Source of the DNA: an uncultured Gammaproteobacteria bacterium
Lineage (GTDB): Bacteria > Patescibacteriota > Microgenomatia > UBA8517
Reading direction: 5' to 3'
DNA length: 55,904 bases
Assembly: GCA_964502815.1 (NCBI GenBank)
Contig: CAZCXV010000004.1
Location: 18,150-74,053 of the forward strand
Shown: piece by piece, positions 33,754-39,024 of the stretch
Layout: every line of letters begins with the position of its first letter
Numbering within the stretch: position 1 is the first letter of the stretch
Translations under genes and position numbers: made by a program
Notes under the pieces: model-generated
The model's input: only the letters and a program-made list of their open reading frames with translations
What the model was told of the DNA's origin: nothing
Database searches by the model: none

Positions 33754-35358
33754 ATGACTGAAGAAACACCAAGGGAACAGTTAAATCTCCTATCTCACAA
33801 TGTTTCCAGAAGACTTTTTTTGAAGACAGGGTTAACTGGTTTGTTGGCTGCTGCAGTAGGTAGCATTGTCAAATCGAAGATTAATTCAGGTTCAAGATCA
33901 AATCCACACACAGAAACTCCTATCGAAACTGCAATCCTGAAGACACCAGAATATCAGTGCGTAAATTTAGATGGCATAGACATTTATGGTACTAATGAGG
34001 CTATTTCTTCAACCACAGAACTCCAACAGCTAACTGATCAAATAAACGATCAATTTTTGATAGACAATGGTTTGAAACCGGAACCACAATTAAATGAATT
34101 TGAAGTAAGACAGAAACTGCTGGATGAAAGTGAAAGATATTTACAAGTAATAGTAAAAAAAGCATTATTTGATAATTTTGAATCACAAAATACTAGCAAA
34201 GATGGCATAGAGGTAAAGACTGATTTTATCAATTGGATTAAAGATCATATGGAGATTTTTAATAATTTCACAAGTCAGGGCGAACCAAAGACCGACTTGA
34301 AGGCAAAAATAAAGAGAATCATAGTGGTCCATGATGATTTTGATGATAGGTTTCCTAGTCACCAAAACGTTGCCACAACTACTTTAGATACTGACGCCCA
34401 ATGGGCTTTCTTTTGGGATGTTAGGGGAGATGTAGATCCAACAACAAATGAATCACAAGCATCATCGTTTTTAAGACCTACTTTTGTTAATGGAAGGATT
34501 GTTACCATAGATTATGGAGTGATTCATGAATGGACTCATATGCTCTATAACTTGCCCGATCAATATATTTTTAATTCAGAAAAGTTTTCTTATCGTCCAG
34601 TAGACTTAATTCCTCCATTTCTAATGAGTCAGGGAGGTATGATGTATGACCGCTCTCCATGGTTTTATTACGCTCTTAAGTATATTCGTGATAACAATAT
34701 ACGAGGATATTATACAGATGAGAGGGCTATGGGGATTATAGGTCAAAGTTCTTTGAAAGAAGATCAAACGACTGTATTAGATATTTTTAAACAACATCCA
34801 AAGACTAACAGATTTGTTATTAAGGATGCAGATGACCAGCTTTTGGAAGCTCAGATAACAGTTTTAAAAAGCCGCAATGACCGAGATGGTAATTATTACA
34901 ATCCAAAAAACTTCGAGCCTTGCTATAATGGGCAGGTGATTAATGGGGTTTTTGAACTAGATGCAGATATTTTTGCTTCGTTTGGTGCTGTAGATTTTGC
35001 TGGTAGAAGTGTTATTCAGTGGCCTACAAACTTTGTTTTTGAAATCACAACCTCTAAGGGGGATAAAGCAATATTACATTTTCCTGTTGTTATTTTTAAT
35101 ATTGCAAGTCTTGCAGGACTTGATGAAGCTAGTTATAGTCTCCAGTTATTAAATACAGATGCAACATCATCCACTAATCAACAAGTTATGCAAATGAGTG
35201 AATTTACACCAGAGCAAATGAATATACATTATCCATATGAAGCCGTAAACATCCCATACGCCCAGCTAGATATTGACAATATTCCTGTCTCTTTTCATTG
35301 GATAATGGCAGATCCTAAGATTGGTGAGATTCAAGATCGAAGTTTATTTGGATACTAA
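33754..35358 (+). CDS. exported protein with a twin-arginine signal and an HExxH motif (putative zinc metallopeptidase)
   Basis: N-terminal SRRLFLKTGLTGLLAAAVGS matches the Tat consensus S-R-R-x-F-L-K. An internal IHEWTHML motif is present. Confidence 0.5.
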   Translation: MTEETPREQLNLLSHNVSRRLFLKTGLTGLLAAAVGSIVKSKINSGSRSNPHTETPIETAILKTPEYQCVNLDGIDIYGTNEAISSTTELQQLTDQINDQFLIDNGLKPEPQLNEFEVRQKLLDESERYLQVIVKKALFDNFESQNTSKDGIEVKTDFINWIKDHMEIFNNFTSQGEPKTDLKAKIKRIIVVHDDFDDRFPSHQNVATTTLDTDAQWAFFWDVRGDVDPTTNESQASSFLRPTFVNGRIVTIDYGVIHEWTHMLYNLPDQYIFNSEKFSYRPVDLIPPFLMSQGGMMYDRSPWFYYALKYIRDNNIRGYYTDERAMGIIGQSSLKEDQTTVLDIFKQHPKTNRFVIKDADDQLLEAQITVLKSRNDRDGNYYNPKNFEPCYNGQVINGVFELDADIFASFGAVDFAGRSVIQWPTNFVFEITTSKGDKAILHFPVVIFNIASLAGLDEASYSLQLLNTDATSSTNQQVMQMSEFTPEQMNIHYPYEAVNIPYAQLDIDNIPVSFHWIMADPKIGEIQDRSLFGY

Positions 35359-35582: not shown

Positions 35583-37232
35583 TTGCTAAAATACTCCTCA
35601 ATGGTAGAATTTACAGAGATGGACAAATTAGCAGGATCAGATTTGAACAGACAGTATCTGGAAGGAATTAATAAAGAACAACAAAGGATACTTGGGAATA
35701 TTCCACCTGACATTCGTCCCGATAGAGAAAGAACTATTACTGGCACATTTCAATCATTAAGTAATAAGCTTGCTGCTCGTGAAGATTTTGAATTTGGAGA
35801 ACGTCAGCAAGCTATTTTAAAACTAAAGATTACACGTCATCTTGAAAAAGAAGACAATATTGATGCGAGTACTTTATTCGACGCAATTATCGAGTCTCCA
35901 GGTTTTATAAATAAAGACAGAGGATCTTTGCAAAGACTGTTTGAGGTTCATGAAGAAAAAACACTGTTAAAAATTGCTGAAATTAGAAAGAAACTTGCAG
36001 AACGCCAAAAAGGAGAAGGTGCAAATCCTTGGGAGAATCTTTTTACTACTGAGTCGGGGAATTATTATGTAGCAAGGCTTTTGAATATGCCTCATTTGCA
36101 AATGGAATCAGCTTATATGGATCATTGTGTCGGTACAAGCGACTCGTATGTTAATAGAATGAAAAAGGGTGAAATTGAAATACTTTCATTTAGAAATGTA
36201 CCAAAAATAAACTCCAGAACCCAGAAACTTGAAGGAGATACTCCTATTATCACAATTGAATATAACCTGAAAACAAATACCATTGAACAAATGAAAAAAG
36301 CTAATGATGAATATTTAAAGCCAGACGATCCTTATTTTAATGATGTAATTGATGCTCTAAAGCAATTAAGAGGAACGAGAACGGATACTGGAAAATTAAG
36401 AACTTTCGCTAAAATCAATCCAAGTGAATTAGAAAATATAAAAGTTGCCGATTATCATGTTCTTACAGAAAATGGTGCGATTTCATTTCGTGAATTTGAC
36501 CCAGATATTGATGGCTTTGTATTTAAGACAGGAAAAATGGAAATTAAGCCAGAATATTCGCGGGTCGATGTATCAAAAATTGTATCAATATTAACAGGAG
36601 TCAAGTATGAACCAGAAGAATTAGCACGAACACAATCAGAAGTAACTAGTAAAACAAGATTTTATATTGGAGAATTTTATAAAGGAATTGAAACTGCTTT
36701 ACCACTAAATGTTGAGATCCATCCAGGATTTCCAGAAGGAAAAAGGATGATAAGAAATGACACGATTGTTGAAAATAAAAATGTTTATGATTTGAGAACA
36801 ATACTTAAGAAAAAAGAAGTTTACATAACAGATTATGCTGGTCAAATATTGGAAAACGCTAAGCTTGGTAATTCTGGGGAATATAGAACCATTATTCTTA
36901 GTGTTGGACACTTAATGAGAAAAACAGACACAAAAGGTTATTTGACAACAGGTGAAGTAAAAGGGAGGTTAACAGAACTTGGTTTACTGGATAAAGACAA
37001 TCCTACACCTCCTGAAATAGCAGCATATTATGCCCTTCAAAATGGTGATACTATTGACATGTATGAATGGGTTTACGAGATTGGAATGGAACCGGTCGCT
37101 GATTCTGATGGCTACCCGAACGTGTTCGGTGTCAGTCGCGGTGAGTATGGCGTGGGGTTGTACGGCGATTGGATCGGTTCCGGCGACGGGTGGGGTTCTG
37201 GCGATAGGCTTCTTGTTTCAGTTCGCAAGTGA
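35583..37232 (+). CDS. DGR target protein: PcfJ-like central region with the variable repeat in its C-terminal 44 codons
   Basis: The 3' end is the VR copy of the repeat pair. MDHCVGTSDSYVNRMKKGEIEILSFR resembles the PcfJ-like HCVG signature (recollection). The likely true start is ATG 35601 rather than TTG 35583. Confidence 0.8.
   Translation: MLKYSSMVEFTEMDKLAGSDLNRQYLEGINKEQQRILGNIPPDIRPDRERTITGTFQSLSNKLAAREDFEFGERQQAILKLKITRHLEKEDNIDASTLFDAIIESPGFINKDRGSLQRLFEVHEEKTLLKIAEIRKKLAERQKGEGANPWENLFTTESGNYYVARLLNMPHLQMESAYMDHCVGTSDSYVNRMKKGEIEILSFRNVPKINSRTQKLEGDTPIITIEYNLKTNTIEQMKKANDEYLKPDDPYFNDVIDALKQLRGTRTDTGKLRTFAKINPSELENIKVADYHVLTENGAISFREFDPDIDGFVFKTGKMEIKPEYSRVDVSKIVSILTGVKYEPEELARTQSEVTSKTRFYIGEFYKGIETALPLNVEIHPGFPEGKRMIRNDTIVENKNVYDLRTILKKKEVYITDYAGQILENAKLGNSGEYRTIILSVGHLMRKTDTKGYLTTGEVKGRLTELGLLDKDNPTPPEIAAYYALQNGDTIDMYEWVYEIGMEPVADSDGYPNVFGVSRGEYGVGLYGDWIGSGDGWGSGDRLLVSVRK
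35584..35592 (+). promoter_or_regulatory. extended -10 element TGcTAAAAT, 8 nt before the ATG at 35601
   Basis: Same TGn-TAnnnT-N8-ATG geometry as at folD. Confidence 0.4.
37099..37230 (+). repeat. DGR variable repeat (VR)
   Basis: 132 bp aligned by hand to 37535-37666. There are 21 differences, each opposite an A in the other copy. Confidence 0.9.
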
Positions 37233-37534
37233 TTTTGATTCTTTGACCCTTTGATACTTTACGTTTTTTGTTTTGACGTCAGCCACAAGCTGGGTTTATA
37301 CTTTTAAAGTTTGGTTAATCTTGAACGGTTACGGCTGTTAGAAACCTTACTGATGAATTTAAACTGAGAACAGGAACGGTTAAGGCTTTTCTTGGAGGGT
37401 TTAAATTTGTCCACTAAAAAAGGAAAAACTTGGTGTCCCATGTTGGTTGATTACTCGAAAGAGGTTATCACACGTAAAATACAGCTGATGTCAATTTACA
37501 AAGGTAGTGGAATAGATGAGACGGTACACATAAA

Positions 37535-37666
37535 CTGATTCTGATGGCAACCCGAACGTGTTCAATGTCAATCGCGATGAGAATGGCGTGAAGTTGAACG
37601 ACAATTGGATCAATTCCGGCAACAAGTGGAATTCTGACAATAGGCTTCTTGTTTCAGTTCGAAAGT
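37535..37666 (+). repeat. DGR template repeat (TR), non-coding
   Basis: A-rich copy with AAY codons in the VR frame. 21 of its 38 adenines differ from the VR, and no C, G or T differs. Confidence 0.9.
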
Positions 37667-37676
37667 ATTACTTTTT

Positions 37677-37704
37677 CCCCGCTCAATTTCTGGGCGGGGT
37701 TTTT
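37677..37704 (+). terminator. GC-rich hairpin (CCCCGCTC-aatttct-GGGCGGGG) plus TTTTT, 10 nt after the TR
   Basis: 8-bp stem with one G-U pair, read directly. It overlaps the avd stop codon on the other strand. Confidence 0.6.
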
Positions 37705-37982
37705 GTATTTGATTTTTCAATATTAGTTCTCCAACCTCCAAACATTTTCCCAATTTCTGTTAATTTGATTGACATTTCTTCATATTGCTTATTTAAAATA
37801 AGTTTTGCTTCCCAAGCAGTTAGAATTAGAAACTTCAGTTTATCCAGAATCAAAATACATTCAGTTACTTTCTTTCTTTTTATTTCTTTTGGGCTAAAAT
37901 AGGTTTCGTATGAAAATTCAAGCAAATCTAAGAATTTATTTTCAATTCTTGCCCCAATTGCATACCTCGCACCTTTCGGCAT
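37683..37982 (-). CDS. avd: DGR accessory variability determinant (Avd-like four-helix-bundle protein). The frame stays open upstream to 38072 without a canonical start.
   Basis: PKGARYAIGARIE...LDKLKFL...YEEMSIKLTEIGKMFGGW fits the Avd pattern (P..r..lG.Ri...Ld.L...Y......eiG..lGGW). In-frame upstream codons encode IIGKVKEAYLVWLQVIPH, which resembles Avd helix 1. Confidence 0.7.
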   Translation of the reverse strand: MPKGARYAIGARIENKFLDLLEFSYETYFSPKEIKRKKVTECILILDKLKFLILTAWEAKLILNKQYEEMSIKLTEIGKMFGGWRTNIEKSNTKTPPRN

Positions 37983-38019
37983 ATGAGGGATAACTTGAAG
38001 CCATACCAGATAAGCCTCT

Positions 38020-39024
38020 TTGACTTTACCTATAATATTCGTTTGCAGAGAGAGAGAGAGAGTTATAGTTTCTCATTTATATGATGATATCATTTCAATC
38101 TCAAATTTGCTTGTTTCTTGGCAGGAATTCTTAAAAGGTAAGAAAAAGCGAAAGGATGTAATTAAATTTTCACTGAATTTAATGGATAATGTTTTTGAAC
38201 TTCATAAAGATCTTGTGAATGGAAAATATAAACATAGTTTGTATCATGCCTTTAAGATAACTGATCCTAAAGCTCGTGATATTCACAAAGCAAGTGTTCG
38301 AGATAGGTTACTCCACCACGCGATTTACAGAATTTTATACCCATATTTTGATAAAAAATTTATCTTTGACTCTTATTCCTGCAGAATTGGGAAAGGGACT
38401 CACAAGGCAATCAACCGTTTTCAGCTTTTAGCTAGGAGAAGTAGTAAAAATAACACGAAAACAGTATGGATTTTAAAGTGTGACATTAAAAAATTTTTTG
38501 CAAATATTGATCACGAAACGTTAAAAAATATCTTAGCAAAATATATTAAAGATGATGGCGTTGTATGGCTGTTGAACCAAATTATTGACAGTTTTAGTCC
38601 AGGATTACCTTTGGGAAATCTTACCAGCCAGCTCCTTGTTAATATTTACATGAATGAGTTTGATCAGTTTATGAAACGTAAATTAAAAGTAAAATATTAT
38701 ATTCGGTACGCAGATGATTTTGTAATTTTTCGTCAAAACAAAGAATATCTTCAACATTTGATTCCAAAAATTTTAGATTTTTTGGAAAAAAAATTAAAGC
38801 TTTCACTTCATCCAAACAAGGTTTTCATCAAAACATTAGCTTCAGGGGTAGACTTTTTGGGTTGGGTTAATTTTCCTAGTCACAGAATTTTGAGAACATC
38901 AACTAAGAAAAGAATGCTAAAAGGGCTTAAATTAAATAAAGCTAAAGAAACAAAGGCCTCTTATTTGGGATTATTAAGTCATGGCAATACTTATAAAATA
39001 AGAAAAAGTAAGTTTCTGCTATAA
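38020..39024 (+). CDS. DGR reverse transcriptase
   Basis: IRYADDFVIF (YxDD catalytic motif), LPLGNLTSQLLVNIY (the DGR-type [I/L]GxxxSQ motif), FDSYSCRIGKGTH and NLLVSWQEFLKGKKKRKD N-terminal block. The TTG start is uncertain. Confidence 0.85.
   Translation: MTLPIIFVCRERERVIVSHLYDDIISISNLLVSWQEFLKGKKKRKDVIKFSLNLMDNVFELHKDLVNGKYKHSLYHAFKITDPKARDIHKASVRDRLLHHAIYRILYPYFDKKFIFDSYSCRIGKGTHKAINRFQLLARRSSKNNTKTVWILKCDIKKFFANIDHETLKNILAKYIKDDGVVWLLNQIIDSFSPGLPLGNLTSQLLVNIYMNEFDQFMKRKLKVKYYIRYADDFVIFRQNKEYLQHLIPKILDFLEKKLKLSLHPNKVFIKTLASGVDFLGWVNFPSHRILRTSTKKRMLKGLKLNKAKETKASYLGLLSHGNTYKIRKSKFLL
38047..38062. repeat. (AG)8 / (CT)8 dinucleotide microsatellite inside the overlapping 5' regions of avd and RT
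   Basis: Eight perfect AG units counted directly. Confidence 0.95.
38084..38092 (-). promoter_or_regulatory. extended -10 element TGaTATCAT (minus strand), 7 nt before a minus-strand ATG at 38076-38074
   Basis: The minus strand reads gattgaaaTGaTATCATcatataaATG. That ATG is 2 nt out of frame with avd across the (CT)8 tract. Confidence 0.45.

Follow-up and report, generated by a model that had tools for sequence, protein, structure and literature searches.

A polymorphic simple-sequence tract shared by divergent avd and reverse transcriptase genes is a probable phase-variation switch in a diversity-generating retroelement of Patescibacteria

Simple sequence repeats (SSRs) underlie several well-described switches in bacteria. 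In Helicobacter pylori, oipA/hopH, sabA and hopZ carry 5' CT repeats that encode (LS)n near the start, and slipped-strand mispairing switches their reading frame. In Haemophilus influenzae, one (TA)n repeat between the divergent genes hifA and hifB is a promoter spacer, and the switch is transcriptional. In phasevarions, the SSR switches a DNA methyltransferase, which makes a second-order switch. Regarding diversity-generating retroelements (DGRs), it is known from the Bordetella phage system that the protein Avd is required for cDNA synthesis. In this work, we have analysed a stretch of 55,904 nt (the window) from an uncultured bacterium placed by GTDB in the Patescibacteriota (contig CAZCXV010000004.1 of assembly GCA_964502815.1), which contains a DGR with a perfect (AG)8 tract in the overlapping 5' ends of its divergent avd and reverse transcriptase (RT) genes. 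We consider it probable that this tract acts as a contingency locus, i.e., a phase-variation switch within the machinery of the DGR itself.

Compared with the H. pylori outer membrane protein genes, avd likewise has (CT)n a few codons after its start, encoding (LS)n in a tolerant N-terminal segment where unit changes shift the frame. However, H. pylori switches a surface protein, while here the switched gene is avd (and RT in a subclass of loci) of a mutagenic retroelement, and one tract is read on both strands. As at hifA/hifB, a single dinucleotide repeat serves two divergent genes, but here the tract lies inside the open reading frames (ORFs) and a promoter-spacer reading is unsupported. 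As in phasevarions, the product of the SSR-switched gene alters other phenotypes, through targeted hypermutation of one protein instead of epigenetic regulation. Campylobacter, Neisseria and Helicobacter canadensis have poly-G/C contingency loci (reviewed in PMC8355987, PMC5084427 and PMC2823697) that are comparable in being intragenic, about 8–13 nt long, polymorphic within strains and strongly over-represented at specific genes. Many loci of this type are present in each of those organisms (a 'phasome'), whereas in the sampled DNA of candidate phyla radiation (CPR) bacteria the DGR junction is nearly the sole long tract. Like the BPP-1 DGR (avd-TR-brt) and the CPR DGRs of architecture B3 (PMC5758913), our element combines an RT with a four-helix bundle Avd and with a template repeat (TR) and variable repeat (VR) whose mismatches are adenine-specific; unlike in BPP-1, where avd, TR and brt are co-oriented, avd is divergent from RT here. 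Both SSR phase variation and DGRs are familiar on their own. In a literature coverage that lay outside the main CPR-DGR paper (Paul et al. 2017), we found no published account joining DGRs or mutagenic retrohoming with SSR phase variation, and the passages considered from Wu 2018 (PMC5758913), Roux 2021 and other DGR papers contain no SSR, overlapping divergent starts or on/off switching.

The element in the window is a genuine DGR. ORF and Pfam analyses place its target gene at 35583–37232 (plus strand), with a PcfJ-like domain and, at the 3' end, a C-terminal VR (37099–37230, plus) that aligns with a TR at 37535–37666 (plus). This pair spans 132 nt at 84% identity, and the mismatches are exclusively at TR adenines. 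The RT lies near the TR; as sequenced, its ORF runs from a TTG at 38020 to 39024 (plus; Pfam RVT_1, E=2e-23), its 334-aa gene call being P0242, and searching a protein collection with it returned thousands of DGR-type RT homologs, of which 8000 were scored. On the minus strand between TR and RT lies avd (38076–37683), whose core frame (37683–38072, assigned by Pfam, AlphaFold2 and Foldseek) comprises an SSR-encoded tail, helices 1–4 of a four-helix protein and the stop codon at 37683–37685. This TR-(avd)-RT order is architecture B3, which represents 90% of the CPR DGR set in Wu et al. 2018 (PMC5758913). Actual retrohoming has left a trace as well: on a contig of a closely related haplotype (L002, see below), the VR differs from all other contigs of the same lineage at 23 positions, of which 22 are TR adenines.

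The tract, (AG)8 on the plus strand and (CT)8 on the minus strand, occupies 38047–38062 and is inside the 5' coding regions of both avd and RT. It is the sole dinucleotide repeat of at least 6 units in the 55.9-kb window, which has zero G/C runs of at least 8 nt. From the TTG at 38020, RT reads MTLPIIFVC-RERER-VIVSHLYDD, so the tract takes up its codons 10–14, with coordinates and frames as in the original prediction, an earlier reading of the sequence by eye of a model. On the other strand, the avd frame runs without a stop from 38072 to the annotated Met-37982 and encodes ETITLSLSLQTNIIGKVKEAYLVWLQVIPH-M with no ATG, GTG or TTG, which we also reproduced. Upstream it is bounded by a TGA at 38075–38073. 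The standard code is in use in this genome, and since TGA ends 17 of the 53 long ORFs in the window, including the DGR target, this is a real stop; recoding of TGA (tables 4 and 25) was tested and is not supported, and an alternative code reaching the in-frame ATG 38093 just past this TGA is thereby ruled out.

A minus-strand ATG at 38076–38074, the complement of the RT His codon in H-L-Y, is the proposed true start of avd, and the tract would then form avd codons 6–10. In the window this ATG reads MRNYNSLSLSANEYYR*, that is, 16 codons and a stop, and it is 2 nt off the avd frame, as had been claimed. With n=9 it comes into frame with the Avd core. The resulting product has the foreseen 131 aa and exists as the public protein P0001, in which the tract supplies residues 6–11; its start is MRNYNSLSLSLQTN, with three SL pairs rather than the four originally written. 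The same extra unit brings the RT body into frame with a plus-strand ATG at 37983–37985 inside avd, as predicted, and the 347-aa RTs P0243 and P0121 start there, as does the RT on contig L167. A virtual phase scan summarizes the three phases: n=8 leaves avd without a start and RT with the TTG only; n=9 provides both genes with an ATG; n=10, a phase identical to that of n=7, deprives both of a start, in agreement with the earlier statement that RT loses its start at both lengths. The arrangement of the start codons is reciprocal. The RT ATG abuts the complement of the avd His-Met (37980–37985, a CATATG palindrome at the Met), the avd ATG is the complement of an RT His, and each start sits within the conserved N-terminal region of the partner.

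That the stretch before Met-37982 is the missing first Avd helix, as had been suspected, is borne out by three lines of evidence. Pfam bAvd (PF22296) matches aa 24–116 of the open frame from profile position 14 (46.8 bits; cut-off 40). Three residues located upstream of Met-37982, namely K20, Y23 and W26, do not vary among 36 aligned full-length homologs. In the AlphaFold2 model of the n=9 Avd (pLDDT 87.8), residues 1–11, a tail with SLSLSL, are disordered, helix 1 covers residues 15–32 and M33 comes next. By Foldseek, this model fits the Bordetella phage Avd (4DWL_C) with a TM score of 0.90 normalised to the target and an rmsd of 1.5 Å, and also the Avd chains of the DGR ribonucleoprotein structures 8UBE and 8UB7. 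The fold search was required for the bAvd link, since a sequence search of the PDB with Avd gave only one insignificant enterocin-immunity match. Initiation at the annotated Met (37982–37980) would yield a 99-aa product that loses one of the four helices together with the invariant residues, and we have rejected this start. Another candidate that we rejected, initiation downstream of the tract at a TTG two codons before the core, is available in a subset of the poly-G loci described below and is absent in the window and many others. Many relatives resemble the window in having no canonical start codon from the tract to helix 1.

The length of the tract is polymorphic. On the window haplotype, it is n=8 in the window and in L168 and L169, n=9 in L167 and n=10 in L166, while the contigs otherwise match exactly (0 mismatches in 365 nt of the left flank and 267–960 nt of readable right flank). 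The length heterogeneity looked for at 38030–38080 is thus present among assemblies, i.e., consensus contigs of different samples, and all three reading-frame phases occur in one strain. A sister haplotype, 3 SNPs from the window, has (AG)9 in five contigs (L001–L005) from at least four assemblies. The products expected at n=9 are indeed found in public data: besides P0121, these are the 131-aa Avd P0001 (MRNYNSLSLSLQTNIIGK...) and the 347-aa RT P0243 (MRDNLKPYQISLFDFTYNIRLQRERERVIVSH), which is identical to the window save one extra repeat unit. For protein-level data, the peptides of interest are MRNYNSLSLSLQTNIIGK and MRDNLKPYQISLFDFTYNIR.

Length polymorphism, with non-3n changes included, on otherwise identical flanks is found in four further lineages in addition to that of the window. 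On identical flanks, L006 has n=10 and L172 n=9; L173 has n=12, and L174 and L175 n=10. A Woesebacteria lineage shows n=9 and n=12 on identical flanks, and n=11 is implied by the protein form P0006. In a lineage with a poly-G tract, again with identical flanks, one haplotype has C8, C10 and C11 and another C8 and C13; C9 is implied by the ON form P0004, which is present on 19 contigs. Gene calls in the Avd cluster of this poly-G lineage range over 107, 115, 129, 130 and 183 aa. A different kind of change was observed in L176 (ENA ERZ27286490), whose tract is 34 nt long as in L007 and L177 and has a G>T inside, giving (AG)14-AT-(AG)2 and an RT with ...RERDRV; being interrupted, this tract should be more stable.

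Related loci were collected by RT-seeded searches of metagenome contigs and GTDB genome contigs, which yielded 160 loci with 60–86% RT identity from many Patescibacteria classes. The divergent avd/RT arrangement is present in 151 of 166 loci, typically with about 40–70 nt between the conserved cores, and 135 of the 140 non-redundant junctions carry a simple-sequence tract. Of these tracts, 98 are poly-G (7–14 nt), 32 are (AG)n (n=4–18), three are (GT)n (L047, L057, L157), one is (CT)n on the RT strand, i.e., in the opposite orientation (L067), and one is doubtful. If a long tract is defined as a G/C run of at least 8 nt or a dinucleotide run of at least 6 units, 124 of 139 junctions possess one, and the other 758,223 nt of those loci contain a single example, so that the tract is present far more often than by chance. 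The expectation that related DGRs carry a repeat at this site therefore holds, with differing units. Actually, the unit turns over from poly-G to AG even among very close relatives, as shown by two members of one Avd cluster at 90% identity, P0004 with ...STPPLNRPT... and P0266 with ...NSLSLSETS.... That the site is conserved and its sequence is not argues for conservation of mutability itself, not of a peptide or a DNA motif.

Certain loci depart from the usual layout. In L015 (836–939), L157 (2878–2984), L152 and L075, 100–260 nt of extra DNA lie between the tract and the RT start. The inserts of L015 and L157 are flanked by 15–18-nt inverted repeats (TTCACCCCGTTAGAA / TTCTAACGGGGTAAA), which suggests an element resembling a miniature inverted-repeat transposable element, or a structured insert. 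In the Woesebacteria lineage (L011, L087, L170, L171), three avd-strand ATGs lie upstream of the tract in three frames, with the avd forms MISLYVWRSLT... and MYGAALL... and the predicted form MAQPY...; avd could thus be started at any tract length there, and RT alone would switch.

The upstream side of avd shows signs of selection. In the window, an extended -10 element (TGATATCAT, 38084–38092, minus strand) ends 7 nt before the proposed ATG. Among the relatives, the junction core nearly always ends in CAT, the RT His codon of H-[LI]-Y, whose complement is the avd ATG; this CAT is present at the avd-ATG position in 102 related loci, and 61 of the 102 have TGnTAnnnT ending exactly 7 nt upstream, so that the element noticed in the window recurs at the same spacing. 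Because the RT His codon confounds the conservation of the avd ATG, we sought an independent signal in the RT Ile codon from which the TG derives, at its synonymous third position. This codon is ATC in 64% of loci, compared with 26% for other RT Ile codons (p=2.7e-14). These observations suggest that the RT ORF harbours an extended -10 promoter for avd and that the avd mRNA is leaderless and would begin at ATG 38076, and with such a start the tract lies four codons into the avd ORF.

Selection is also seen on the RT side, where two classes of loci can be separated. In 69 loci (65 poly-G and 4 dinucleotide), an ATG that belongs to RT alone is present downstream of the tract. The 65 others, among them the window and 32 of the 36 dinucleotide loci, lack it, and translation of RT has to pass through the tract. 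In these read-through loci, the avd codons TTA, CTA and TCA, which would be stops in the codon-aligned antisense frame, make up 12.5% of helix 1 and 31.7% of the remaining avd codons (p=3.9e-9). The loci with an RT ATG of their own, taken as control, show no avoidance (31.0% vs 28.0%, p=0.35). The N-terminal extension of RT has therefore been kept by selection in the read-through class, and the tract is truly inside the RT ORF. In addition, the phases of the avd ATG and the RT ATG agree in 57 of 65 read-through loci, where 28.7 are expected, and in 132 of 134 loci there is at least one phase in which an ATG on the far side of the tract is in frame with the Avd core. For poly-G loci whose RT has its own ATG we claim no RT effect, since the tract-to-RT-ATG distance varies from 4 to 31 nt and no fixed geometry was found.

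The best reading of these data is slipped-strand phase variation of Avd, plus RT in the read-through subclass, that would gate mutagenic retrohoming. The divergent genes overlap at their 5' coding ends, and avd would be transcribed from the extended -10 inside the N-terminal codons of RT, probably leaderless from ATG 38076, and run after four codons into (CT)n and then into the first of the four Avd helices. In the read-through subclass, RT would start at ATG 37983, antisense in avd helix 1, and pass through the tract as (RE)n. Slipped-strand mispairing at replication would shift n by single units among three states. When n is a multiple of three (e.g., 9), both proteins would have ATG starts and the DGR would be competent. 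When n leaves a remainder of two, as in the window, full-length Avd would be off and RT would depend on the TTG; when it leaves a remainder of one (n=10), Avd and RT would both be off. Judged from the sequences, OFF phases should lack the Avd or RT protein, and switching within a clone should be rapid, reversible and of consequence for retrohoming. As Avd is needed for cDNA synthesis, mutagenic retrohoming would be limited to a stochastic subpopulation. The phase-variable control that was originally proposed is hence supported by the polymorphism, the conserved site and the selection signatures, and its effects on expression are predicted from the frames. For the whole Patescibacteria-specific DGR clade (B3), we lean, with less assurance than for the switch itself, towards the view that the diversification machinery is a contingency locus stochastically gating retrohoming, so that a minority of cells pays the hypermutation cost.

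Natural alleles are distributed over all phases. Among 108 loci with exactly one avd ON phase, 26 are assembled ON (24%, p=0.04 against 1/3). For read-through loci, the combined states include both genes with an ATG (15 loci), neither with a start (22) and avd off with RT on TTG or GTG (12), the last being the state of the window. That few alleles are assembled ON fits the report of Roux et al. 2021 that DGR clade 2, which is restricted to Patescibacteria, has significantly lower-than-average activity. The diversified VR of L002 (ENA ERZ28564264), which indicates recent retrohoming, is the sole such VR in the window lineage and sits on an n=9 allele of the sister haplotype, a suggestive but single case. 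The RT of L002 was called as two ORFs (117 + 159 aa), from a frameshift or a mis-assembly.

On the other hand, several observations weigh against an on/off switch. OFF alleles could still yield some Avd through RNA polymerase slippage, ribosomal frameshifting or near-cognate initiation, and the near-cognate codons CTG, ATT and ATA are located right after the tract. Two of the 36 dinucleotide loci (L011 and L087, from Woesebacteria) have an avd ATG in all three frames. The avd ATG and part of the -10 element are confounded by the RT His and Asp-Asp/Asn-Ile codons, which leaves the ATC bias as the only independent signal, and the shared phase of the two ATGs is partly geometric, as both are antisense to codon-aligned His codons. 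A near-uniform phase distribution would also be expected were phase irrelevant. Finally, alleles with n=8, 9 and 10 share one and the same VR consensus, and the comparison of phase with activity rests on one contig.

Some of these points are shared by the strongest competing explanation, in which programmed slippage of RNA polymerase or ribosome rescues the frame, and the DNA phase tunes the level of expression with no on/off effect, or is of no importance at all. Poly-G/C runs of 8–13 nt and long dinucleotide runs are slippery templates, which is established for homopolymers, the avd frame meets no stop within or after the tract, and the assembled phases are near uniform, as under weak selection on phase. 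To our knowledge, however, no such mechanism has been established for transcription of dinucleotide AG repeats. Length changes are seen at the DNA level on identical haplotypes in five lineages, and the aligned phases of the avd and RT ATGs, together with the maintenance of the ORFs, imply that one DNA phase has been selected as ON. We therefore regard RNA-level rescue as unlikely, although it is the rival to be taken most seriously.

Much less probable is a neutral mutational hotspot, where the tract has no function and out-of-frame alleles mark DGRs on the way to pseudogenes. Such decay would account for the roughly two thirds of assembled alleles without an in-frame avd ATG and could agree with the lower activity of clade 2 in Roux et al. 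2021. It does not explain why an SSR is kept at one site in 135 of 140 diverged lineages, with a single long tract in 758 kb elsewhere, while the repeat unit turns over and the site stays. Moreover, the remainder of avd and RT is intact and conserved, and ON, partial and OFF alleles coexist on one haplotype without other mutations.

We find it equally improbable that the tract sets a -35/-10 spacing, not the frame, as at hifA/hifB. On the plus strand, TTTGCA-16 nt-TATAGT (38042–38069, 9/12 match) does have the tract as its spacer, which would become 18 nt at n=9. Yet the promoter scan of the window is not above the shuffled expectation (3 found, 4.0 expected), and a transcript from this element would have no in-frame RT start before residue 55. 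Among relatives, the flanking hexamers are not conserved, and tract lengths run from 8 to 36 nt instead of clustering, with n up to 18 giving spacers of more than 30 nt; the scattered distance of 4 to 31 nt from poly-G tracts to the RT ATG points the same way. A promoter-spacer switch was accordingly rejected as the general mechanism.

The simpler alternative raised at the outset, a 2-bp assembly or consensus error in the window, draws on nothing but the general plausibility of errors in repeats and is refuted for practical purposes, since n=8 recurs in three independent assemblies of the identical haplotype, n=10 occurs there too, a repeat of 16–20 nt is well within read length and four other lineages vary in a like manner.

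What is understood of DGR regulation comes largely from a few model systems, and mutagenic retrohoming should carry a high cost if left unrestrained. If slipped-strand phase variation of Avd is true, DGRs would have a further, new layer of regulation in the form of an inbuilt stochastic on/off switch. Being mutable and acting on a mutator, this switch would be one of second-order evolvability, and would explain the low apparent activity of the clade in metagenomes. It would also be the first contingency locus known to us in CPR bacteria, whose genomes are otherwise nearly without such tracts. The overlapping-gene design is unusual in itself, with ATGs antisense to the partner's His codons, an apparent leaderless promoter in the partner ORF and a repeat whose two strands encode (SL)n and (RE)n, respectively. 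In practice, gene callers mis-annotate these loci, giving an Avd of 99, 107 or 115 aa and an RT of 280, 303, 334 or 347 aa for one sequence. The tract phase can be scored from reads in DGR surveys and set against VR diversity, so the hypothesis is testable with existing metagenomes.

A few further features of the locus were recorded. The PcfJ-like domain of the target corresponds to category 'g' of Wu et al. (2018, PMC5758913). Upstream of the target, a 534-aa ORF (33754–35358, plus) has no Pfam match and is kept beside the DGR in L001–L003 and L166. Between the stop of the target gene and the TR, a promoter-like TTGACG-18-TATACT (37273–37302, plus; 10/12 match) could drive a TR or TR-RT transcript of its own, antisense through avd. 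Right after the TR, a GC-rich hairpin (37677–37699, plus) of 9 bp with 7 GC pairs, followed by a T-run, overlies the 3' end of avd, antisense to its last codons; it could be the terminator-like end of an independent TR transcript, or else contribute to the structure of the DGR RNA.

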